A stretch of 64,000 bases of DNA, taken from positions 84,082 through 148,081 of the forward strand of contig JALUEE010000047.1 of the NCBI GenBank assembly GCA_027053075.1. The letters are read 5' to 3'. Under the pieces are notes generated by a model. It worked only from the letters and a program-made list of their open reading frames with translations. It was not told the origin of the DNA and searched no databases. The position numbers and the translations under genes were made by a program. Positions 8,419 to 64,000 of the stretch are shown one piece after another. Numbering within the stretch: position 1 is the stretch's first letter; each line of letters opens with the position of its first letter. This stretch comes from a candidate division WOR-3 bacterium. GTDB lineage: Bacteria; Hydrothermota; Hydrothermia; B15-G9; WFZT01.

Positions 8419-8531
8419 GAGCTTATTCCCCCACCTTTTCCTCCCCCACTCACAAAGTGAGTGGGGGAGGAAAAGGTGGGGGCAAATTTTTCATTGAAAA
8501 TCAAAGGTTTTGAAATTTTTCGGACAGGCTC
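8419..8531. mobile_element. MITE-like element, 113 bp, with 10-bp flanking direct repeat
   Basis: Imperfect terminal IRs GAGCTTATTC / GGACAGGCTC; 26-bp perfect internal stem 8428-8482; AGCAACGATT at 8409-8418 and 8532-8541. Confidence 0.85.
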
Positions 8532-14178: not shown

Positions 14179-14211
14179 AGGGGGCGGCGCCCTTCGGGCG
14201 CCGCCCCCTTT
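14179..14211 (+). terminator. GC-rich hairpin, probable intrinsic terminator
   Basis: AGGGGGCGGCGCCC-TTC-GGGCGCCGCCCCCT, 10 nt after the stop codon. Confidence 0.75.
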
Positions 14212-18762: not shown

Positions 18763-18951
18763 CCATTAAAAAAGTAATCAAGCAAGTCAACTTGTTGATT
18801 GCAAAAGTACACTTTCCTGACTGAAATCATATAGAAACATTCAAGATCCTCCACTTTTTGATCCCGTTTTTTGTTTGATATGCAAGTGTGTTTGAAAAAT
18901 TTCAATTTTAAGGGAAATTTAAGGGGGACATTTTCAAACGACGTTCTTTGA

Positions 18952-28765: not shown

Positions 28766-31182
28766 CCTTTTCTCTGGAATAATTTACGAAGGCTCCAGCG
28801 ACTGTGCCCGTTGGTCCGGTGGTAATACGAATAGTAGTATCTTTTATACTCCCTGTAGCGGTAACCTGAGGCATTAATTGAGAAGAAGTTTAAAACTATT
28901 CCAAGGACCTTTGCATCAACTCTTTCAAATAATTCGATAGACCTTTTAAGCATTTTTGTGCTTGTCCATCTGTGTCTTGCCACAAGGATCACGCCATCCA
29001 CAAGGGTACTGAGCTCTATTGAATCCGTAACGGGCATAAGTGGGGCACTGTCTATCACCACATACTCATACCTCCCCCTCATCTCCTCTATCACCCTCCT
29101 CATCCTCACACTTCCCAATAACTCCGATGGATTCGGCGGTATATGCCCACTCACCAAAACATCCAACCCCTCCACCTCACTCCCCCTTATCACTACCCCC
29201 AGCTCCGCCTCTCCTACTATCACCTCCGTTAACCCAGGCTCCCTCTCCATACCAAATATCTTATGCACCATCGGCCTCCTCAAATCCGCATCCACCAACA
29301 ACACCCTCTTCCCCATCTGCGCCATCACTATCCCTAAATTCGACGCCACCGTAGTCTTACCCTCCCCCGCTCCACTACTCGTCACCAATATCACCCTCAC
29401 CTCCTCCCCAGCTCCACTAAACCTTATGTTCGTCCTTATCCCCTTGAACGCCTCCGCCGTCGGCGACATCGCATCATACTGCGTCACCAACCTCTCCCTT
29501 ACATCCTTACCTCCCATCTCCGGCACTGACCCTATCACCGGCACCCCCAGTACACTCTCCACCTCCTCCGGACCCCTCACACTCGTATCCATGTACTCCT
29601 CCACAAACGCCAAACCTAACCCCAACATCAATCCCAGTATTATCCCCAATATTATGTTCAACCTCTTCCTCGGCTTCACAGGACTCACCGGCGGATACGC
29701 AGGGTCTATTATCTTCGCATCCGACGTCTGCTTCGCCGCAGCTATCCTCGCCTCCTCCAACTTCGATAACAACATCGAATACACCGCCCTACCAGCATCC
29801 ACCTTCCTCTGTAACTCCGCTAACCTCACCTCATGCCCCGGCAATCCCTTTAACTTCCTGTCCTCCTCCTCTATCAACCTGTTCAACGCCTTTAACTTCC
29901 CCTCCAACGCACTTATCTGCGTCTGCGACTCTATTATCCCCCCCACTATCTTCTGAAATATCGGGTCCGCTACACTCGGCCCCTCCTTCACTATCTTCCC
30001 TATCGCCTCCCTCAACTGCTCCCTCGTCGCCTCTATCTGCCTCTCCACCTGCACCACATCCGGATGTGACTCCGTATACTCCTCCAATAACTTCGCCCTC
30101 TCCAACTCCAACTCCGTTAACTTACTCTTCAACTCCTGTATGTATGGATTCGAACTCAACTCCGGTAATGACGCTATCCTCTTGTACTTCCCATACTCCC
30201 CCCTGCTCGAACTCGCCTGCCTCCTCAAATTCTCCAGCTGTATCTTCAACGACGCTATCTGGGTCTCTACATCGCTCTTCTCCGCCTCAAGAGAGCTTAT
30301 GTTAGATATCAAATTCTTCGCGGTCTCATCCAGGAGGAATATACCTGTTTTTTCCTTGAAATCCTTGAGTTCATTCTCGGATTTTCTTAGCTCGGCCTCG
30401 ACCTTCTTCAGCTGTTCTTCGATAAACTCTTTGGTTTTCAGAGCGTCCTCTTTCCCCAGATACAACGTGTATCTCACGTACTCCTCCGCCACCGCATTGG
30501 CAATCCTGGCAGATGAATCAGGCGAGTGCGTTCTTACCTTAATTTCAGCAAGATTGGTATTACCATACTGTTTGACTTTGATCTTCGATGCAAAGGATTT
30601 TGCCATAGAGTAAGGATGTTTCACTTTGAATTTAAATCCATTCCCGAGACCAGCTCCAAGAAGCCTAAATGAGAAATCCTTTGTTTTAAAAACTTTCCCA
30701 ACCTCACCCTCGCCAATGAGTTCCCCGGAAGCCTTAAAAACTTTAAATCTCTGGTTATCTTTGAATTCTACCCTATAAACACCTGTAGCGGGACTGAGAG
30801 ACGAGGAAGTGGAATCAACGGCCACTCCTCTGGGAAACTTTAAATTCATTCCCAGCCTCGCAAGCACACGACTATTTATGCTCCTCGATTTTATGATCTT
30901 TATCTGGGTAGCAATTGGGTCATAGATGTAAGCTGGTTCTGGAGAAACTTCGGGAACAACGGTTACAAAAGTTTTTGAGATCGAAAGAGAGACTATAGAG
31001 GTGGCCTCATAAGTGGGCTTAGAGAATTCGTTAAAAAGAATTACACCAGTAATTACCGCCAGAAGGGTGAGGAAAATTGTTTTCCATCTACGGACAAGAA
31101 CATCTAAAATATCACTGAGGGTTATCTCATCATAAAGGTCTCCATCAAGGGAAATATTACTTTTTCCGTTTCCGGAATACAT
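28762..31182 (-). CDS. wzc: Polysaccharide co-polymerase / BY-kinase (Wzc/GumC-CpsD fusion), copy A
   Basis: Two TM segments, coiled coil, GAGEGKTT, LLVDADLRRP and VVIDSAP motifs, Tyr-rich tail. Confidence 0.9.
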   Translation of the reverse strand: MYSGNGKSNISLDGDLYDEITLSDILDVLVRRWKTIFLTLLAVITGVILFNEFSKPTYEATSIVSLSISKTFVTVVPEVSPEPAYIYDPIATQIKIIKSRSINSRVLARLGMNLKFPRGVAVDSTSSSLSPATGVYRVEFKDNQRFKVFKASGELIGEGEVGKVFKTKDFSFRLLGAGLGNGFKFKVKHPYSMAKSFASKIKVKQYGNTNLAEIKVRTHSPDSSARIANAVAEEYVRYTLYLGKEDALKTKEFIEEQLKKVEAELRKSENELKDFKEKTGIFLLDETAKNLISNISSLEAEKSDVETQIASLKIQLENLRRQASSSRGEYGKYKRIASLPELSSNPYIQELKSKLTELELERAKLLEEYTESHPDVVQVERQIEATREQLREAIGKIVKEGPSVADPIFQKIVGGIIESQTQISALEGKLKALNRLIEEEDRKLKGLPGHEVRLAELQRKVDAGRAVYSMLLSKLEEARIAAAKQTSDAKIIDPAYPPVSPVKPRKRLNIILGIILGLMLGLGLAFVEEYMDTSVRGPEEVESVLGVPVIGSVPEMGGKDVRERLVTQYDAMSPTAEAFKGIRTNIRFSGAGEEVRVILVTSSGAGEGKTTVASNLGIVMAQMGKRVLLVDADLRRPMVHKIFGMEREPGLTEVIVGEAELGVVIRGSEVEGLDVLVSGHIPPNPSELLGSVRMRRVIEEMRGRYEYVVIDSAPLMPVTDSIELSTLVDGVILVARHRWTSTKMLKRSIELFERVDAKVLGIVLNFFSINASGYRYREYKRYYYSYYHRTNGHSRWSLRKLFQRKG
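29024..30503. repeat. 1480-bp direct repeat, copy 1 (within wzc A)
   Basis: Aligns without gaps to 31452-32931 (offset 2428). Confidence 0.95.
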
Positions 31183-33616
31183 TCAAAAGTTTCTCCCAAA
31201 GTGAGGACTTTTTCTTGTGACCATCACCGTAATAGTAGTGGTAATAGTGATAGTAACGGTATTTCCCGTACTTTCCATATTTGTAATAATAGTACCTCCT
31301 CCTGAGGTTTATACCGTTGTAAACCACGCCAATCAATTTTCCACCGAACCTCCTGAGTTGCTCAACAGCTCTTTTTAGGACTTCTCTATCAGTTATTCCA
31401 TCTCTAACAACCATGATAACACCATCCACAACCGGACTTAGTTCCATGGTGTCCGTAACGGGCATAAGGGGGGCACTGTCTATCACCACATACTCATACC
31501 TCCCCCTCATCTCCTCTATCACCCTCCTCATCCTCACACTTCCCAATAACTCCGATGGATTCGGCGGTATATGCCCACTCACCAAAACATCCAACCCCTC
31601 CACCTCACTCCCCCTTATCACTACCCCCAGCTCCGCCTCTCCTACTATCACCTCCGTTAACCCAGGCTCCCTCTCCATACCAAATATCTTATGCACCATC
31701 GGCCTCCTCAAATCCGCATCCACCAACAACACCCTCTTCCCCATCTGCGCCATCACTATCCCTAAATTCGACGCCACCGTAGTCTTACCCTCCCCCGCTC
31801 CACTACTCGTCACCAATATCACCCTCACCTCCTCCCCAGCTCCACTAAACCTTATGTTCGTCCTTATCCCCTTGAACGCCTCCGCAGTCGGTGACATCGC
31901 ATCATACTGCGTCACCAACCTCTCCCTCACATCCTTACCTCCCATCTCTGGCACCGACCCTATCACCGGCACACCAAGTACACTCTCTACCTCCTCCGGT
32001 CCCCTCACACTCGTATCCATGTACTCCTCCACAAACGCCAAACCTAACCCCAACATCAATCCCAATATTATCCCCAATATTATGTTCAACCTCTTCCTCG
32101 GCTTCACCGGACTCACCGGCGGATACGCAGGGTCTATTATCTTCGCATCCGACGTCTGCTTCGCCGCCGCTATCCTCGCTTCCTCTAATTTTGATAACAA
32201 CATCGAATACACCGCTCTTCCCGCATCCACCTTTCTCTGTAATTCCGCTAACCTCACCTCATGTCCCGGCAACCCCTTTAACTTCCTGTCCTCCTCCTCT
32301 ATTAACCTGTTTAATGCCTTCAACTTCCCCTCCAACGCACTTATCTGCGTCTGCGACTCTATTATACCCCCCACTATCTTCTGAAATATCGGGTCCGATA
32401 CACTCGGCCCCTCCTTCACTATCTTCCCTATCGCCTCCCTCAACTGCTCCCTCGTCGCCTCTATCTGCCTCTCCACCTGCACCACATCCGGATGTGACTC
32501 CGTATACTCCTCCAATAACTTCGCCCTCTCCAACTCCAACTCCGTTAACTTACTCTTCAACTCCTGTATGTATGGATTCGAACTCAACTCCGGTAATGAC
32601 GCTATCCTCTTGTACTTCCCATACTCCCCCCTGCTCGAACTCGCCTGCCTCCTCAAATTCTCCAGCTGTATCTTCAACGACGCTATCTGGGTCTCTACAT
32701 CGCTCTTCTCCGCCTCAAGAGAGCTTATGTTAGATATCAAATTCTTCGCGGTCTCATCCAGGAGGAATATACCTGTTTTTTCCTTGAAATCCTTGAGTTC
32801 ATTCTCGGATTTTCTTAGCTCAGCCTCGACCTTTTTCAGCTGTTCTTCGATAAACTCTTTGGTCTTCAGTGCATCCTCTTTCCCCAGATACAACGTGTAC
32901 CTCACGTACTCCTCCGCCACAGCATTGGCAAGGTCAGCGGCCTTTTTAGGTGATGTTGAGCGCATCTTTATTATAGCGAGATCCGTCTTTCCCTTCTGCA
33001 TCACCTTTATTCGACGGCTGAATCCCTGGGCGACTCTGTAGGGTAAAAGGACTGAAAAAGTAAATGAATCGGGATGCTTCTTCAAAAATTTCTTTGAAAA
33101 GCCAACGATTCTAAATCTAATTCCATCAGTTGAAAAAACCTCACCTATCTTGCCGGTTCCTATTTTTTTATTGTCCGAGGAATAAACTACTAACTGGTCA
33201 TTACCTATAAATTTTACCCTGTACTCCCCAGTCTCAGGCGCAATTGCCGACCATGTGGAATCTACCTTGACTCCTTCAGGAAATCTCAGGTTTATCCCAT
33301 ACTTGGCCACCACATTTCTTGCTATGGTCTTGGATTTTATGATTTCGATCTGACTTTGCACAGGGTCCACTGAGCGTGCGGTAGGTGATATTTCTGGAAG
33401 CACTGACACAGATGTCTCTTTAATTGCCAGCTTAACCATAGAAGAGGCTTCGTAAACCGGTGTGGAAAGGTAAGATATGACCACCGCGATAACGGTTACA
33501 AAAACTGTAACCACAACGATTGTTTTTAGCCTTCTCAGGATAACATCTATGATATCCCCAAGACTTATTTCTTCTTCCTGAAATCCGTTATTCTGCACCT
33601 CATTATTTAATTCCAT
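31157..33616 (-). CDS. wzc: Polysaccharide co-polymerase / BY-kinase (Wzc type), copy B
   Basis: Same motifs as copy A; tail RRRYYYYKYGKYGKYRYYHYYHYYYG; AGGAGG RBS. Confidence 0.9.
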   Translation of the reverse strand: MELNNEVQNNGFQEEEISLGDIIDVILRRLKTIVVVTVFVTVIAVVISYLSTPVYEASSMVKLAIKETSVSVLPEISPTARSVDPVQSQIEIIKSKTIARNVVAKYGINLRFPEGVKVDSTWSAIAPETGEYRVKFIGNDQLVVYSSDNKKIGTGKIGEVFSTDGIRFRIVGFSKKFLKKHPDSFTFSVLLPYRVAQGFSRRIKVMQKGKTDLAIIKMRSTSPKKAADLANAVAEEYVRYTLYLGKEDALKTKEFIEEQLKKVEAELRKSENELKDFKEKTGIFLLDETAKNLISNISSLEAEKSDVETQIASLKIQLENLRRQASSSRGEYGKYKRIASLPELSSNPYIQELKSKLTELELERAKLLEEYTESHPDVVQVERQIEATREQLREAIGKIVKEGPSVSDPIFQKIVGGIIESQTQISALEGKLKALNRLIEEEDRKLKGLPGHEVRLAELQRKVDAGRAVYSMLLSKLEEARIAAAKQTSDAKIIDPAYPPVSPVKPRKRLNIILGIILGLMLGLGLAFVEEYMDTSVRGPEEVESVLGVPVIGSVPEMGGKDVRERLVTQYDAMSPTAEAFKGIRTNIRFSGAGEEVRVILVTSSGAGEGKTTVASNLGIVMAQMGKRVLLVDADLRRPMVHKIFGMEREPGLTEVIVGEAELGVVIRGSEVEGLDVLVSGHIPPNPSELLGSVRMRRVIEEMRGRYEYVVIDSAPLMPVTDTMELSPVVDGVIMVVRDGITDREVLKRAVEQLRRFGGKLIGVVYNGINLRRRYYYYKYGKYGKYRYYHYYHYYYGDGHKKKSSLWEKLLNVFRKRKK
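31452..32931. repeat. 1480-bp direct repeat, copy 2 (within wzc B)
   Basis: Aligns to 29024-30503. Confidence 0.95.
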
Positions 33617-42919: not shown

Positions 42920-43042
42920 GAGCATGTTCGAAAATGTTGCCCCATCCTATTCTCCCCCATGCACAAAATTGGATCGAGTAGGAGATAGATGATGGGAATT
43001 CCTTTTAATTTCTAAATAAATTGAAATTTTTCGAACACACCC
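42920..43042. mobile_element. Degenerate MITE-like copy with both ends and a decayed flanking repeat
   Basis: GAGCATGTTCGAAAA...TTGAAATTTTTCGAACACACCC; flanks AGCAAATGTC / AGCAATTGTT match at 8 of 10. Confidence 0.7.
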
Positions 43043-47093: not shown

Positions 47094-47148
47094 GCAACGG
47101 GCTTATTGGTGATGATCCGGCCTTGTTTGAAAAGTTGTTTACTTAAGG

Positions 47149-47189
47149 GTGGGGGGTGCCCACGCACTTTGTGCGTGGGCACCCCCCAC
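47149..47189. repeat. 19-bp perfect hairpin sharing the CACGCAC-NNN-GTGCGTG core of the MITE family
   Basis: GTGGGGGGTGCCCACGCAC-TTT-GTGCGTGGGCACCCCCCAC. Confidence 0.8.
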
Positions 47190-47245
47190 TTATGAATAAA
47201 AATTCTTTTTAGCTCTAAATTCCCCAAACAACCTTTCCCCAAGGT

Positions 47246-57849: not shown

Positions 57850-59733
57850 TTGGATACCAGAAAAAGGGTCAAAAAATTGTGGAGAAAGCTCTCCTTTCTG
57901 GAGAGGGTGGGGAAAATCAGCCTGATTTTCATACCTTTATTCCTATTTGCTAAAACCGACACCTACAAGTACACAAATATCGGAAATATCGCTCTGACCG
58001 TAACCAACTTCGGGGTTCTTGGAAATGCTTTCAGGGTCTTTGATCCGGTTACACACGAGCCTTTACCATCCTGCGAATATCCCATTGGATCACGGACAGA
58101 GCACCTTTATAGAGCCGGTATCTGGGTTGGCGCAAAATTAGGAAATGAGGAAAGGGTTTCAACAGCCGTAATAGATGCCCTGACCGCAACCCCCGGGTCA
58201 TCAGAGGGGTTTGAGTTCATGCCTACCCCCTACATTGGAGACACAGTTATTGAGAAATCAACTTTAATAACTTCACAGTATTATGACCCCACGGCGATTT
58301 CTGAGCAGGATTTTTATGCAACCTTTTACGATACTGTGAGTACTATCCCAAACCATCATCCCCTTGGGCTTAAGGTCAATCTTGTTAGTCTGGCCTGGAG
58401 TTATTCATACATAGATGATGCCGTAATACTTGACTACACAATAAAAAATATCGGGCCATACGACCTTGATTCCGTTTACCTTGGTATTTATGCTGAGCTT
58501 GTGACTGGTAACAGGGACTTCTGGGGACAGGATTTTGGCCGTTCGCCATTTTTCCAGCACAAAAGACTCTTTTATCTTGATTCGCTTAGAATGGCTTATG
58601 AGAGAAACGACGGGTACGATTATCTTGCCCAGGGAATGGTGGGTATAAAACTTCTTGGGGTTCAGCACGATACAACCAATATCCCAATGGATTCCATGAC
58701 GGTTTCGTTCAACTGGTGGCACTGGGACTACAGCGTCCAGGTTTCAGACAGCCAGAGATACCAGCTTTTGAGTAATGGTGAGCGTGATCCAGACGTGGAT
58801 GATGAGTATGTAGAGCAGAATGGTTATGTTGACCCTGCATTCTTAATTTCTGTGGGGCCGGTCCGTAACCTGTTCAGGGGTGATTCAGTCAGGTTTGTTA
58901 TCGCATTTGTTGGTGGAATGAACCCTACAGAGCTTGTTCAAAACGCAAATTGGGCACAGAGGGCCTTTGAGGCGAACTATATTCTTCCGGCCCCACCACC
59001 GTCACCGAGGCTGGTCGTGGTGCCCGGAAACAGAAAGGTAACTCTTTATTTTGACAACTCTCCGGAATTTGCAAGAGACCCAACGCCACCACATCTAAGA
59101 GACTTTGAAGGCTACCGTATCTACAGGGGCACATCCCCGCAGCTTGCAGACTCATCCTGGATTCTTCTTAAACAGTACGATAAAACTCCAGACGATACCA
59201 TCCGGGATGTGGACCATTCAGGAGGATTTAACACCGGTATGCCACCAAAAGAAACTGAGGGCCCCTATGCAGGATGGTATAAGTACGTCGATTATGGGGT
59301 TAAAAACGGTTTCACTTACTATTATGCTGTAACATCCTACGATGTAGGTAATCCAGACATTGGTCTGCCAAGTCTTGAGAGCTCTATAAGGCAAAATATG
59401 GTCAAAGTTATACCCGGCACGCCACCGACAGAGGACAAAAAGGTTTATGTATACCCCAATCCTTACAAAAAATCTTCACTCTGGGATAAACCCGGCCCTT
59501 ATGGACGTGTTATCAGGTTCAATAATCTACCGCCCAAATGCACGATTTACATTTTCAACCTTGCCGGTGACCTTGTTAAAACTATCCACCATGACAATCC
59601 AAATTATGGTGAAGAGACCTGGAATCTCATAACAGACAAAGACCAGGAAGTAGCAACCGGTCTTTATTATTTTGTTGTGAAGGATGAAAAAACCGGGAAA
59701 ATTAAACGTGGAAAGTTTTTAATAGTCAAATGA
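57850..59733 (+). CDS. Secreted protein with Fn3-like domain and T9SS/FlgD-type C-terminal domain; start possibly GTG 57907
   Basis: DFEGYRIYR, YYYAVTSYD and VYPNPY...IFNLAGDLV...GLYYF motifs. Confidence 0.75.
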   Translation: MDTRKRVKKLWRKLSFLERVGKISLIFIPLFLFAKTDTYKYTNIGNIALTVTNFGVLGNAFRVFDPVTHEPLPSCEYPIGSRTEHLYRAGIWVGAKLGNEERVSTAVIDALTATPGSSEGFEFMPTPYIGDTVIEKSTLITSQYYDPTAISEQDFYATFYDTVSTIPNHHPLGLKVNLVSLAWSYSYIDDAVILDYTIKNIGPYDLDSVYLGIYAELVTGNRDFWGQDFGRSPFFQHKRLFYLDSLRMAYERNDGYDYLAQGMVGIKLLGVQHDTTNIPMDSMTVSFNWWHWDYSVQVSDSQRYQLLSNGERDPDVDDEYVEQNGYVDPAFLISVGPVRNLFRGDSVRFVIAFVGGMNPTELVQNANWAQRAFEANYILPAPPPSPRLVVVPGNRKVTLYFDNSPEFARDPTPPHLRDFEGYRIYRGTSPQLADSSWILLKQYDKTPDDTIRDVDHSGGFNTGMPPKETEGPYAGWYKYVDYGVKNGFTYYYAVTSYDVGNPDIGLPSLESSIRQNMVKVIPGTPPTEDKKVYVYPNPYKKSSLWDKPGPYGRVIRFNNLPPKCTIYIFNLAGDLVKTIHHDNPNYGEETWNLITDKDQEVATGLYYFVVKDEKTGKIKRGKFLIVK

Positions 59734-61148
59734 TGAAAGAGCTCATTCGAAAAATTTCAAATTATTTGATTTTGAGAAGGAATTCCCCCCACCTAACTCC
59801 TCCCCCCACGCACTTCGTGCGTGGGGGGAGGATGGAAGGAGGGGGGCTACATCCGCAAATAGGCGCGAAAAAATTATTGCTCCCTATAGTTATAACCCTT
59901 CTACTCGCCTCGTGTTCAAAGAAGCCCAGAGAGGAGATTGTGCCAAATATCCCACCTGAAACTTATATCTACGTGGAAGGAAGAGTGGATACCGTACCTG
60001 CACGAGTCATTCTTCACTGGTATGGAAATGATCCTGATGGTTATGTGGTGGGGTATTATTACAACTGGGATAACGACTCAGATACCGTTTTCACAACTGC
60101 AAACTACGATACATTTTCCCTCTCATCTGCAGGTTCAGTGCAGGTTCACGTTTTCAAAATATGGGCGGAGGATAACGAAGGAGCAATTGATCCCACTCCG
60201 GCAAGCGTAACAATACCCGTAATAAATTCACCACCCACAATTCAATTCCAAAGGGGCACATTGCCTCCTGATACCACCTTACCTGTTGCAACTTATTACC
60301 TCGAATGGCACGATATTGATGGAGATTCAACAGTCATTGGTTACTACTGGCAGCTAAATTCTGACACTCCACACTTTGTCCCATCCGATTCTACTTTCGT
60401 CACATTGACAAATTTGCCTCCTGGTTCTGACACGGTCTATTTCTGGGCAGTTGATGAAAATTCCGCTGTTTCTGATACCATAGCTGACACAATCTACATT
60501 AAGCCTGTTACAGGTGATATTTTATTAGTGGACGATGACCCTGATAACACTGCAGATAGTTTCTATTCACAAATGCTGACCAATCTGGGATACCAGTACA
60601 CACTCTGGAAAATAGATAGAGGGCTCCCCTACTCCCCCATAGACCAGAGATACATTATCAATAGCCTTGGGTTTGACCTCATCTTATGGTACACCGGGGA
60701 GACAAGTTCCCATGTAAAGGATGTGTATGGTTATCTAACCGAGTATCTGGACAATGGTCATAAACTGTTCCTCACCGGGGCCGGCATTTTTACTGACCTT
60801 GATTCCACAAACCTCGTTCAAAATTACATGCACGTGGATTCTCTCTTTGGAGACAAGACCATATTGCCCAATCAGCCAGTTTTCCGCGTATATCCAGATA
60901 CACTCTATCCGGATACTCTCCATACATTGACGATTATTCCTCGTGTAGATGGATTTACCGTCAATCCACCTGCGGTAATCGTTTATAAAGCGCCGGTCCT
61001 TGGAAGAAACGAACCAATTGGAATGATGCTAAAAACACCCGAAACAAATCCGAATATCATTGTATTTGGCCTGAAGGTTCACAAACTGGGAGGAAACCTT
61101 CAGGGACTATTTAGGCATATCTTAAGTGACGAGTTTGGTATGAAATAA
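59730..61148 (+). CDS. Lipoprotein with Ig/Fn3-like domains; N-terminus carries an in-frame repeat insertion
   Basis: Lipobox LASC; PPETY, DPDG, DPTPA and ILLVDDD motifs; ATGA overlap with upstream stop. Confidence 0.75.
   Translation: MMKELIRKISNYLILRRNSPHLTPPPTHFVRGGRMEGGGLHPQIGAKKLLLPIVITLLLASCSKKPREEIVPNIPPETYIYVEGRVDTVPARVILHWYGNDPDGYVVGYYYNWDNDSDTVFTTANYDTFSLSSAGSVQVHVFKIWAEDNEGAIDPTPASVTIPVINSPPTIQFQRGTLPPDTTLPVATYYLEWHDIDGDSTVIGYYWQLNSDTPHFVPSDSTFVTLTNLPPGSDTVYFWAVDENSAVSDTIADTIYIKPVTGDILLVDDDPDNTADSFYSQMLTNLGYQYTLWKIDRGLPYSPIDQRYIINSLGFDLILWYTGETSSHVKDVYGYLTEYLDNGHKLFLTGAGIFTDLDSTNLVQNYMHVDSLFGDKTILPNQPVFRVYPDTLYPDTLHTLTIIPRVDGFTVNPPAVIVYKAPVLGRNEPIGMMLKTPETNPNIIVFGLKVHKLGGNLQGLFRHILSDEFGMK
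59739..59866. mobile_element. MITE-like copy inside a coding sequence
   Basis: Starts GAGCTCATTCGAAAAATTTCAA (resembles reverse complement of 86-107); 35-nt hairpin at 59798-59832 identical to 11-45. Confidence 0.8.
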
Positions 61149-61167
61149 AAAATGGAGGTGAATCCTT

Positions 61168-63003
61168 ATGAAAAAGTTGCTGGTAGCTGCTATGTTTGTT
61201 GCCCTTGTAGGTGTTTCAAGGGCGCAAATACAAACAACTATCTATCATCTGCAGTTTGACAGGGATTCAACTGGAGCAAGTACCTGGGTAGACTCAGGAG
61301 AAGTCACAGTCTCCGGAATCGTAACCGCTGGCTACGGTGTAACTGGTTCAAGGAACTTCTTCCTTGAGATGTCTCAGGGAGGTCCGTGGAGCGGCATTAT
61401 GGTATACATACCGTCATCTGCCGGTACCTTCCCTGTAAATGTTGGCGATTCCTTGACAGTAACAGGGACTGTAAGCGAGTACTACGGTAATACAGAGTTA
61501 ATGGTCAGTGACACTAACAACATCGTCAGAAATGGAACCGCCAATTTACCACCAGTTGCAATTATCTCAACTGCCCATCTTGATACAACTTCAACATCTT
61601 CATACGGACCTGATTCAGCAGAGGCATATGAAGGAGTTCTCGTTAGAGTCGAGAATGCCTTTGTTGTTGACACAACAGCTCCTCATGGTGGTTTCCAGAT
61701 CACAGACGGAGATGGCTACGCAATAGTCTACAACTCTTACACTTACACACCGCATGTTGGAGATCCATTAAACGTCACCGGAATCGTCCACACCCATTAT
61801 GGCTGGTACAAAATTAGACCAAGAAGTGCAGATGACATTGAGGTTCTCTCACAGCACATTTCAGTTGCCTACAGCACATCAAGGACTTCGCTTAATGTGA
61901 AATTCACAAGACCGGTCAATCCTTCTTCAGCCACAAATCCTGCGAATTACATAATCACCCCTTCACTTTCAGTGACTGCTGCCAGCATTGATCCCAATGA
62001 TTCAACGCTTGTACACCTTACAACCGGTACACAGACAGATGGTCAGGCATACACACTCGCCACCCAGAATCTTGGAGTGCCTGATACAGAGGCTGTGACA
62101 TTTTACGGTGGATTCACACCTATTTTTGATATTCAGCACGAGTATGTGGACACCGACACAGTCAATTTTGAGTCAATCTGGGCGGGTCGAGTTGTTACCA
62201 TAACCGGTGTTATAACAGGCGAAAGAGATGCCTTCCCGTATCCGTTTTACTTTGTCCAGCAGGGGACAGGGCCATGGTCAGGCATCCAGATTTTCGATTC
62301 TCACATGAACTACACCACCAACCGTGGTGATTCCGTGATCGTGGTTGGAACGGTTAGTGAATACAACGGAATGACGGAACTCGAGAACATACTTTATTAC
62401 GAGACCGTCTCATCTGGTCATACGGTTACACCTTATCTCGTACACACAGGAGACCTGAATCTCAATGCCGATACTGTTGCAGAGAGTTTTGAGAGTGTAC
62501 TTATCACCACATATACAGCTGCAGTGGTAACCAACGATCCTAATAACTGGCAGATAGACGATGGTACAGGTGTTGCCTATGTGGATAATTCCAATGCTTA
62601 TAACTATGTGCCAACAGTGGGAGATTCAGTTGCAGTGACTGGAAATGTTAGATTCATCAGAGGCAATTTCAATATCAATCCTCGCGACGATAATGACATA
62701 AACGTGGTATATGTAGGAGTCAACGAGCTTCCCAATGCTGGATTAAGATCATTTGAAATCCTGCCTGTGGTCTCGTTCAGAGGCGACTTTACTATCAAGT
62801 TTGCTGTGTCTTCAAGGACAAGAGTGCGTGTAAATCTTTACAATGTTACAGGCCAGAGAATCCTTACTGTGGCAGATAGAAACTTCAATGCTGGACTTCA
62901 CGAGCTCAGAATGAATCTCGGGAATATGACACCCGGTGTTTACTTCTTCAAGGTGGATGCAGGCAAGACGAGGATTTACAGGAAAGTTATAATTTTGAGA
63001 TAA
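61168..63003 (+). CDS. Secreted protein with duplicated OB-fold-like modules, central Ig-like domain and T9SS-type C-terminal domain
   Basis: Internal repeat (VTVSGIVT/VTITGVIT, GPWSGI twice, VSEY.G.TEL twice, PR..DDI-like twice); YNVTGQRI...GVYFFK. Confidence 0.75.
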   Translation: MKKLLVAAMFVALVGVSRAQIQTTIYHLQFDRDSTGASTWVDSGEVTVSGIVTAGYGVTGSRNFFLEMSQGGPWSGIMVYIPSSAGTFPVNVGDSLTVTGTVSEYYGNTELMVSDTNNIVRNGTANLPPVAIISTAHLDTTSTSSYGPDSAEAYEGVLVRVENAFVVDTTAPHGGFQITDGDGYAIVYNSYTYTPHVGDPLNVTGIVHTHYGWYKIRPRSADDIEVLSQHISVAYSTSRTSLNVKFTRPVNPSSATNPANYIITPSLSVTAASIDPNDSTLVHLTTGTQTDGQAYTLATQNLGVPDTEAVTFYGGFTPIFDIQHEYVDTDTVNFESIWAGRVVTITGVITGERDAFPYPFYFVQQGTGPWSGIQIFDSHMNYTTNRGDSVIVVGTVSEYNGMTELENILYYETVSSGHTVTPYLVHTGDLNLNADTVAESFESVLITTYTAAVVTNDPNNWQIDDGTGVAYVDNSNAYNYVPTVGDSVAVTGNVRFIRGNFNINPRDDNDINVVYVGVNELPNAGLRSFEILPVVSFRGDFTIKFAVSSRTRVRVNLYNVTGQRILTVADRNFNAGLHELRMNLGNMTPGVYFFKVDAGKTRIYRKVIILR

Positions 63004-63018
63004 AGGAAAAATGCAGAG

Positions 63019-63056
63019 GGGGGCGGTGCCCTTCGGGCACCGCCCCCTATTTTATT
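63019..63056 (+). terminator. GC-rich hairpin with T-rich tail, probable intrinsic terminator
   Basis: GGGGGCGGTGCCC-TTC-GGGCACCGCCCCC followed by TATTTTATT. Confidence 0.8.
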
Positions 63057-63738: not shown

Positions 63739-63947
63739 AATACTTTAGGGAAAGGGGGTACACCAGAAAAAATTTCAATCCATATCCGGTAATCTCCTTA
63801 TTCCACGAAGTGGGTGAGGGCCTCCATCTTGAATTTTTTAAGACTTCAAGCGGAATACCCCCTCCCAGAATCCCTTCTATAATGTTTGTTGTTATTTATG
63901 ATGGTTATCACTAAAAATATAGGGAAAACACTTCGGGAGGAGATGGT

Positions 63948-64000
63948 ATGAGTGGGTGGAGACCGGCCTTGGTCCTGGGGCATGACCCCGAGGGGGAGAT
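63948..64000 (+). CDS. Possible 5' end of a CDS running off the window
   Basis: GGAGG RBS before ATG; open to window end; TATAAT at about 63878. Confidence 0.35.
   Translation, partial: MSGWRPALVLGHDPEGE

Follow-up and report, generated by a model that had tools for sequence, protein, structure and literature searches.

How does a palindromic repeat come to lie in frame within the signal peptide of a bacterial lipoprotein and leave the gene open? The question is raised by a 64,000-nt stretch of DNA from a candidate division WOR-3 bacterium (G000:C47:84082-148081, where G000 is the source genome and C47 the contig; hereafter the window), in which the gene for a predicted 472-residue lipoprotein carries a hairpin-forming insert of 44 codons at its 5′ end. 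The original prediction, drawn from the letters alone, likened the insert to Rickettsia palindromic elements (RPEs). These are 100-150-bp palindromic repeats that lie in frame within unrelated housekeeping genes and supply a recurring peptide, with most of the other copies being intergenic (excerpts of PMC10969869 and PMC3184786).

Here, we compare the locus with five congeneric genomes (G001-G005), with homologous proteins and, at the focal site, with four metagenomes (X2, X3, X5 and X8). [quoted passage not shown]

Results

The insert and its host gene

The lipoprotein open reading frame (ORF) stays open through the insert and its ATG overlaps the upstream stop as ATGA, both as first described (Table 1). 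Removal of 59739-59870 (132 nt, 44 codons) from the ORF gives MMKKLLLPIVITLLLASC, the restored lipoprotein signal that had been predicted, and all five equivalent deletion registers (start 59735-59739) give this product. Aligning orthologues without the insert had been proposed as a check; in G001, G002, G003 and G005 the orthologue is empty, its start codon lies in an identical ATGA overlap, and its signal has 15-17 residues. The G004 assembly lacks the 5′ region of the gene.

Three of 64 homologues share the insert – P0001 (98%), P0002 (86%) and P0006 – and they are also the only carriers among 36 candidates for query residues 1-62; with the window protein they make up four filled proteins. 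P0006 is a chimera, in which the N-terminal ~205 residues are ~89% like the window protein and the C-terminal half comes from a distant allele, a structure that suggests intragenic recombination. The metagenome evidence, here and below, consists of the 32 of 565 contig pieces and 40 of 67 variant rows listed. Among these, one contig each in X3 and X8 skips exactly 132 nt, with modest support (sides of 24 and 26 nt), and filled and empty alleles coexist in these two of the four metagenomes. The names of the homologues indicate candidate division WOR-3. The listed holders of the DNA are mostly hydrothermal-vent metagenomes, none of those listed being an RNA data set, and a scan of JGI data found one locus, an empty orthologue.

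Pfam and NCBIfam searches of the 472-residue lipoprotein gave no match, and Foldseek gave generic FN3/Ig matches only, which point to no function. The gene of the FN3 lipoprotein is the second in a run of three (window 57850-63003). The first encodes a protein with a type IX secretion system (T9SS) sorting-like end and is a neighbour of the lipoprotein gene across the order; the third encodes an OB-fold protein that carries a T9SS C-terminal domain.

Table 1. Features of the focal locus, in window positions. TIR, terminal inverted repeat; TSD, target-site duplication; SD, Shine-Dalgarno.
Feature	Position	Strand	Basis or remark
Upstream gene, 627 aa, weak T9SS-sorting-like C-terminus	57850..59733	+	TGA overlaps lipoprotein ATG (ATGA) and abuts second ATG (TGATG)
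-10-like hexamer TTTAAT, without the conserved A at second position	59701..59706	-	Target-site weight matrix
-35-like hexamer TTGACT, from upstream codons GTC AAA TGA; target duplication ends on its first T	59724..59729	-	Target-site weight matrix
Left copy of putative 10-bp TSD (AATGATGAAA), holds start codons	59729..59738	+	Directly after GTCA, as the TSD follows TCA at 38/53 bounded copies
Host gene, 472-aa predicted lipoprotein; two FN3/Ig-like domains and alpha/beta C-terminal domain	59730..61148	+	ORF fully open
MITE, ~126 nt, short hairpin family; encodes precursor residues 4-45	59739..59864	+	nhmmer E 6.4e-26, model positions 1-108
Left TIR; first 15 nt match family TIR at 12 positions	59739..59755	+	Compared with consensus and intact IS ends
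G+C-rich hairpin core, BoxC-like, outside strict TMECO consensus	59785..59846	.	Fold and consensus comparison
Element-supplied in-frame ATG with SD-like G-run (-7.8 kcal/mol); Leu in P0006	59832..59834	+	Inside stem, mean unpaired probability 0.14-0.16
Right TIR, degenerate, ~10/16 to consensus (by eye)	59849..59864	+	~6 nt probably trimmed together with right TSD start
Remnant of right TSD copy: GCG AAA in window, ATGAAA in most relatives	59865..59870	+	Contigs and proteins
Original signal remainder: Lys, h-region, lipobox LASC, Cys62 (59913-59915)	59871..59915	+	Sequence, homologue alignment

A MITE family with an IS5-like partner

A family model of 125 positions was built from 35 copies bounded by TIRs. 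It matches 196 merged loci in G000, 191 of them over at least 60 and 85 over at least 95 of the 125 positions; a reversed-genome control for the hairpin-core model gave 0 matches. Pairs of TIRs with a flanking repeat delimit 53 bounded elements of 93-489 bp (one a nested duplicate), the TSD being best fitted at 9 bp in 37 and at 10 bp in 16, and longer families carry the same ends as the short MITE. When 36 copy rows of G004 were looked up in G000, 16 were empty (14 with an 8-12-nt overlap), seven were filled and 13 had no orthologue. The family has the TIRs and TSDs of a MITE, is short and multicopy without a transposase, and shares its ends with an autonomous element that presumably mobilises it. 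In a comparison of 64 genomes from the class, high TIR numbers are confined to G000 (81) and G004 (103); element DNA matches only these two of six congeners, and the insert peptide has five matches among 1.84 billion representatives. A 20-nt TIR scan of genome contigs gave seven scattered matches in unrelated taxa, none ending a matching element, which we take as chance.

The intact partner lies in the sister genome G004 (G004:C168:4933-5993, corresponding to L057:1347-2407). It is 1061 bp long with exact TIRs, a 10-bp TSD after GTCA and a 309-residue DDE transposase; G000 holds only decayed copies. The transposase passes the cut-off of PF01609, and its best match is the IS5 model NF033579 (104.4 bits, E 7e-30; cut-off 140), so that we call it IS5-like and do not file it as an IS5 member. 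Its nearest named relative is the transposase of ISAae1 from Aquifex, with 38-40% identity. Because the TIRs, the TSDs, the intact G004 partner with the same ends, and the ISAae1-like transposase and ends all agree, the insert is, judged by its sequence, a MITE of an IS5-like, ISAae1-related element.

In the focal copy the hairpin core contains a perfect 16-bp stem (59798-59813/59817-59832, loop TTC), whose 3′ arm ends on the A of the in-frame ATG at 59832; stem and ATG had both been noticed before. The 132-nt stretch folds at z = -6.05, with 0 of 200 shuffles as low, and the 18 matches in Rfam are generic hairpins far below gathering scores. The insert had been described as the element plus one GAAA. 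Instead, we find an element of ~126 nt, and the most fitting reading of 59865-59870 is that these 6 nt are left over from a target duplication of 10 bp; the net insert would then consist of the 126-nt element and this remnant, and the right junction would have lost ~6 nt.

Several other candidates for the partner were set aside. One Mutator-type and five DDE_Tnp_1 matches in G000 lack the family TIR at their ends, and the matches to Mutator-like elements are not the partner of the MITE. UPF0236, which we take to be the ISLre2 family model, was not found in five genomes, in which its positive control also matched nowhere. A 1868-bp element bounded by TIRs and a TSD (G000:C14:7052-8919), considered as an autonomous copy, is a MITE with a nested gene, IS110-like by eye, which sits in the hairpin region; the end of a similar element is found at window 63846-64000. 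The window holds other family copies at 1-107 (end of a 350-bp type), 8420-8531 and 42920-43042 (short copies), together with a possible hairpin-less remnant at 18878-18945 and a lone hairpin at 47138-47200.

Insertion at promoter edges

At 38 of the 53 bounded copies the TSD is followed directly by TGA, compared with 4.0% of random sites. Counted from the base on which the TSD ends, these sites share the consensus TTGACA, 17 nt, TANNNT; its -10 columns, which were not used in site selection, have T 33, A 31 and T 29 of 38. The duplication ends on the first base (T) of the -35 box. These alignments show, for the family, insertion at the upstream edge of what appear to be sigma70-type -35 boxes, with duplication of 9-10 bp, and because the duplication ends on the first T of the box the copies mark ~38 likely promoters in an uncultured phylum.

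The focal site reads TTGACT-N17-TTTAAT on the minus strand. With a matrix made from the 37 other sites it scores 11.36, a value reached by 509 of 4,882,460 genome positions (about 1 in 10,000) and above that of 11 training sites. The empty congeners have GTG or ATA where the upstream codons of the window have GTC. The insert lies at an antisense promoter-like site over the stop/start junction and likely duplicated the start codon instead of splitting the n-region of the signal; the signal peptide itself was therefore likely not the target. Since it is the last codons of the upstream gene that form the antisense -35 box, the landing on the stop/start overlap would be an accident of sequence.

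The same behaviour may extend to ISAae1 on the Aquifex aeolicus plasmid ece1 (L138:363-389 and 1367-1416), which has a near-identical terminal repeat (one end GAGCCTGTTGAAAAAAT versus GAGCCTGTTCGAAAAAT) and a 9-bp TSD. The single Aquifex copy borders TTTACA-N16-TATACT (n=1, by eye), hinting that promoter-edge insertion is common to the ISAae1 group. ISAae1 is nonetheless a distinct element, and in the literature searched neither a MITE family nor promoter targeting is described for it.

At five further copies (G000:C90:76876, C40:44183, C30:24837, C98:22123 and C94:8188) the frame that comes from upstream is long and ends on the edge of the element or just within it, which may reflect additional insertions at antisense promoter-like sites within the ends of genes.

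Fate of the probably duplicated start codon

The ten bases between GTCA and the TIR include both ATGs, which a duplication of AATGATGAAA would therefore have copied, and the target duplication likely did copy the start codon. In X2, X3 and X8, T is present at 59866 in all covering contigs and A at 59865 in most, giving ATG; the variants at this codon 46 are GTG in X3 (depth 6.8 of 44.4) and ATT in X8 (one contig, 6.9 of 9.2), and the contigs of X5 do not cover it. Among the filled proteins the residue is Met in P0006, Val in P0002 and Ile in P0001, and the codon is GCG in the window genome.

Pairing energies were computed with a generic anti-SD, because no 16S tail was found in the assembly. 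They are -3.3 (59730), 0 (59733), -2.1 (59865) and -7.8 (59832) kcal/mol, and there is no SD at the original or at the spare start. Termination-reinitiation coupling needs overlaps and is almost lost at an intergenic distance of about 20 nt (from the available part of PMC10666635), and therefore the coupled ATG is likely the start and the spare ATG likely redundant.

The reading frame has been kept through the insert. The number of extra codons is exactly 44 in each of the four filled proteins, although about 20 distinct residue changes (counted by eye) are found among them, in a protein set that by its ascertainment shows in-frame alleles and hides frameshifted ones. Less subject to this bias, the listed contigs that link the element to unique flank all have 0 gaps. 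In four non-coding copies common to G000 and G004, the two genomes are separated by 39 substitutions and 11 indels, of which none has a length divisible by 3, whereas the coding copy in an ECF-type ATPase gene differs by nine substitutions and 0 indels; this count leaves out two of the seven filled pairs (the second row of L135, and L136), which have length differences >40 nt. A T>A change at 59765 that would create a stop, and a group of indels at 59765-59784, were discarded, as depth and loose ends trace them mostly to paralogous copies; a 15x indel set in X2 was left unassigned.

A different account of the open frame is that the insert is a non-coding 5′ leader, with translation starting at the spare ATG (59865) where this is kept and at 59832 in the window genome, which gives a 28-residue signal. 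Each filled protein retains an ATG at 59832 (G000, P0001, P0002) or 59865 (P0006), that at 59865 is kept in most linked contigs, 59832 has the strongest SD-like pairing, and a Cys at residue 28 or 17 is normal for the homologue family. However, the ribosome site of 59832 is inside the 16-bp stem (unpaired 0.14 at 37 °C and 0.16 at 65 °C), 59865 has no SD, and an internal start leaves the open, in-register first 102 nt unexplained: the sister subfamily often has a stop there, and only two of 26 non-coding short copies are open in the focal frame and in register (3/28 with the coding copy on C23). We therefore consider an internal start rather unlikely.

Under the MITE read-through model that we prefer, the transposase would first have inserted at the -35 edge and duplicated 9-10 bp, a step shown for the family and extended here to the focal copy. 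The 10-bp duplication would have copied ATGATGAAA and left a spare start after the element. Lacking an SD site, the gene would rely on termination-reinitiation at the ATGA overlap, for which a spare start 135 nt downstream, also without SD, would be a poor substitute, and hence only in-frame, stop-free read-through alleles would have kept expression. The spare ATG would since have been decaying by at least two routes (GTG/GCG and ATT), and the insert residues would drift with the frame kept, as proposed, because coupled ribosomes read through the insert.

The predicted extension of the signal peptide

Lipoproteins are exported by the Sec/Lgt/Lsp pathway, in which the Cys is lipidated and the leader cleaved. 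Cys62 is nearly invariant in 58 aligned homologues, and the lipobox LASC and an h-region of mean hydropathy 3.06 agree with a Sec/signal peptidase II signal. The n-region departs from the usual short basic form, with 48 residues if read from 59730 as against three in P0003/P0004; it has a net charge of +7 and no second hydrophobic stretch. In the AlphaFold model residues 15-48 lie below pLDDT 50 and the mature domains mostly above 90. The long, basic, disordered n-region would be expected to stay cytoplasmic, with Cys62 lipidated and a 61-residue leader removed; as the leader is cut off, the mature lipoprotein should be unchanged. Rerouting to the Tat pathway through the RR pair of the insert was rejected: the pair misfits SRRxFL, lies 30 residues from the h-region and is RS in P0006.

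Compared with P0001 the insert has 5/43 changes and the mature part 1/411, consistent with the faster drift expected of a cleaved segment. The idea of a tolerated insertion in a segment that is removed stands insofar as the insert is in frame and drifts faster than the mature part; cleavage itself is a prediction. For the biology of the lipoprotein the insertion is probably neutral. It is very improbable that it crippled expression and that the gene is drifting to a pseudogene in this lineage. The window genome does lack the spare ATG (GCG) and has a hairpin close behind the start, but the decay that would have counted against the original prediction is not seen: the ORF is full, the lipobox intact and the mature part almost unchanged, the C-terminal part is 100% identical in G004, and the window protein retains the invariant columns of the homologue family.

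A regulatory role of the hairpin is likewise not supported. A domesticated regulator, in which the hairpin or the long n-region tunes lipoprotein or operon output by ribosome pausing, RNA stability or slower export, would fit the very stable hairpin (RNA z = -5.73), the age of an insertion shared by alleles 14% apart in protein (P0002), and the separation by the insert of the antisense promoter-like site from its upstream DNA. Tuning by the 16-bp hairpin had also been suggested at the outset, but the stem is the generic core of every copy of the MITE family, and two of the three other filled alleles (P0002 and P0006) have residue changes in arm codons that, as far as protein alone can tell, do not look compensatory. 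The empty allele, moreover, coexists in two of four metagenome runs, and the purD copy in G004 has lost most of its hairpin through in-frame deletions. We regard such a role as distinctly unlikely.

Several observations weigh against read-through of a MITE at this locus. In each filled allele an ATG or a Val codon is retained at one internal position or more (59832 or 59865), and translation of the insert from 59730 is putative. A 61-residue lipoprotein signal is far beyond the homologue range, in which the first Cys is mostly at 15-30. The empty junction is seen in a single short-sided contig of each run, and a deletion after the insertion could also have produced it. At the focal copy the right TIR and right TSD are degenerate, which makes its 10-bp duplication a reconstruction; the -10 element lacks the A found in 31 of 38 targets, and a generic promoter scan does not list the site. 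Finally, the partner transposase is under the NCBI cut-off for IS5 (104 vs 140 bits).

In-frame copies in other genes

A genome-wide count of in-frame and frameshifting coding insertions had been proposed together with the prediction. At least 120 open codons run into the element at 23 of the 191 loci. Ten of these frames continue through the element in register, 12 terminate inside it or at its edge, and one is a candidate disruption, which is at a promoter-like site. The ten read-through genes encode ThiI-rhodanese, an ECF-type ATPase, AroK-AroB, a kinase-like protein, a 1632-residue Ig-repeat protein, PurD-PurE, a deacetylase, a methyltransferase, GuaA and a protein of no known family. Relative to empty orthologues the inserts add 31 residues in guaA, 20 in purD, 36 in aroK-aroB and about 45 in the ECF ATPase. 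These four inserts are absent from the three or four other usable congeners; G004 has all of them, its purD copy shortened by in-frame deletions and its aroB copy with a flipped loop. At four of the 53 bounded copies the empty site lies inside a frame with at least 50 codons on each side. Two of these frames are long real genes in register; the other two are short and at promoter-like sites, and one of the short ones is out of register. Over the three registers, non-coding copies are spread 16/13/20. The hisB gene, considered as a second 5′ fusion, was dropped, as it has its own SD-led ATG downstream.

Two kinds of copy are found among the ten. Hairpin cores without TIRs lie in frame at G000:C39:155-1774 (guaA), C21:38583-40328 (purD-purE), C78:42091-43734 (aroK-aroB), and on C76, C85 and C2, and are common to G004 where compared. 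Full MITEs lie in frame at G000:C40:24952-25077 (ECF-type ATPase), C23:23524-23645 (Ig-repeat protein) and C13:1541-1665 (kinase-like protein), those on C40 and C23 retaining the TSD.

The cores without TIRs bear on whether the focal insert is a transposon copy at all, or instead an RPE-type or repetitive extragenic palindrome (REP)-type repeat spread by a Y1 transposase (RAYT) or a DUF559 nuclease. In favour of such a palindrome, six of the ten in-frame genic copies have no TIRs, and a DUF559 gene in G000 is bracketed by BoxC-like hairpins. For the focal copy we think it scarcely credible: the insert has a left TIR, the AT-rich arm of the MITE and the family target motif, the 95% complete G000 assembly has 0 matches to PF01797 (Y1_Tnp), and the core model has no match on the DUF559 contig. 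RPE/REP-type spread may apply to the TIR-less genic copies.

The DUF559 gene (G000:C26:16563-16877; L137), which several BoxC-like hairpins flank, is the sole DUF559 in six congeneric genomes.

Discussion

The focal family behaves like RPEs and like MITE fusions at gene 5′ ends, yet by its ends, target sites and partner it is a MITE of an ISAae1-related element and not an RPE, a REP or a strict BoxC repeat. The RPE parallel thus holds for in-frame behaviour, which recurs genome-wide inside unrelated, intact housekeeping genes (ten loci, four of them compared with empty orthologues; translation is predicted), and fails for family membership, since TIRs, TSDs of 9-10 bp and an intact IS5-like transposase partner make this a classical MITE, in a different lineage. 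Other differences are that ~5% of family loci are genic (10/191, plus the focal one) as against nearly half in three RPE families, and that the focal copy extends a cleaved signal where RPEs extend a folded domain, both as far as the RPE sources cover these points. From RPE-1 to -10 the family is set apart by distribution, not by sequence comparison. Bacterial MITE-ORF fusions, including 5′ extensions, are known for BRE of Bordetella and for pneumococcal BOX/RUP, and like these the focal family is a non-autonomous repeat in frame at the 5′ end or interior of genes; start duplication with decay of the spare start, and extension of a lipoprotein signal, are not described in the portion of PMC3184786 at hand.

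Fixed insertion relative to the -35 box is shared with the Mutator-like TnGBS, ISLre2 and ISKra4, which insert 15-17 bp upstream of the -35 of housekeeping promoters (Guerillot et al. 2014, PMC3942029, in extract). In the focal family, by contrast, the TSD ends on the first -35 base and the enzyme is IS5-like, not of Mutator type. The focal hairpin core has C-rich and G-rich blocks in the same order as BoxC/PIT/TMECO, intrastrand-triplex repeats that are reported to be always intergenic and to have no link to mobile elements (Holder et al. 2015, PMC4666352, in extract). It differs from them in needing four mismatches and a longer loop to fit the strict consensus, and in lying within a MITE and within genes; six strict TMECO matches occur elsewhere in G000. 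REP/RAYT systems differ in that the focal element has TIRs and a TSD and G000 has no PF01797.

A naturally lengthened signal is also known from BKC-1, whose 46-residue signal is still exported and has a duplicated h-region and a Tat motif (according to the portion of PMC8262980 seen). The focal protein, for which export is predicted, differs in that mobile DNA has lengthened its n-region and its RR pair does not fit SRRxFL. Searches of the literature by title and abstract start found no report of a lipoprotein n-region lengthened by a transposon, nor of promoter-edge targeting by an IS5-family element or MITE.

What the focal locus adds is an intact partner, a measured target rule and an allele series for start duplication. 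Other in-frame palindromic inserts have been described, usually without an identified mover. Here every link of the chain is open to testing, from a transposase of a named type with matching ends, through the -35 edge and the filled and empty sites, to the alleles of one gene. If the proposal is true, mobile DNA can become trapped as coding sequence where start and stop overlap, a single step can give a signal peptide a long n-region, and IS5-like enzymes join the short list of promoter-seeking transposases, with the intact G004 element usable to ask whether RNA polymerase guides insertion.

A wider reading, which we offer tentatively and rate somewhat below even odds, is that an IS5-like lineage (the ISAae1 group) recognises sigma70 promoters and, independently of Mutator-type families, places its insertions precisely on the -35 edge, and that the BoxC-like hairpin of its MITE also seeds RPE-style coding inserts. 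At the focal gene, coupling would then act as a ratchet that forces read-through, lets the duplicated start decay and makes selfish DNA an obligatory 44-residue part of the signal, and vent populations would still contain every stage of this change, as empty, two-start and one-start alleles.

Two further repeats were noted in the window. A separate 30-nt GC hairpin, terminator-like and unrelated to the MITE, has two copies after gene ends (14180-14209 and 63019-63048). A tandem duplicated region (28888-30130 and 31316-32558) has a spacing of 2428 nt and is ~81% identical over a 300-nt core.

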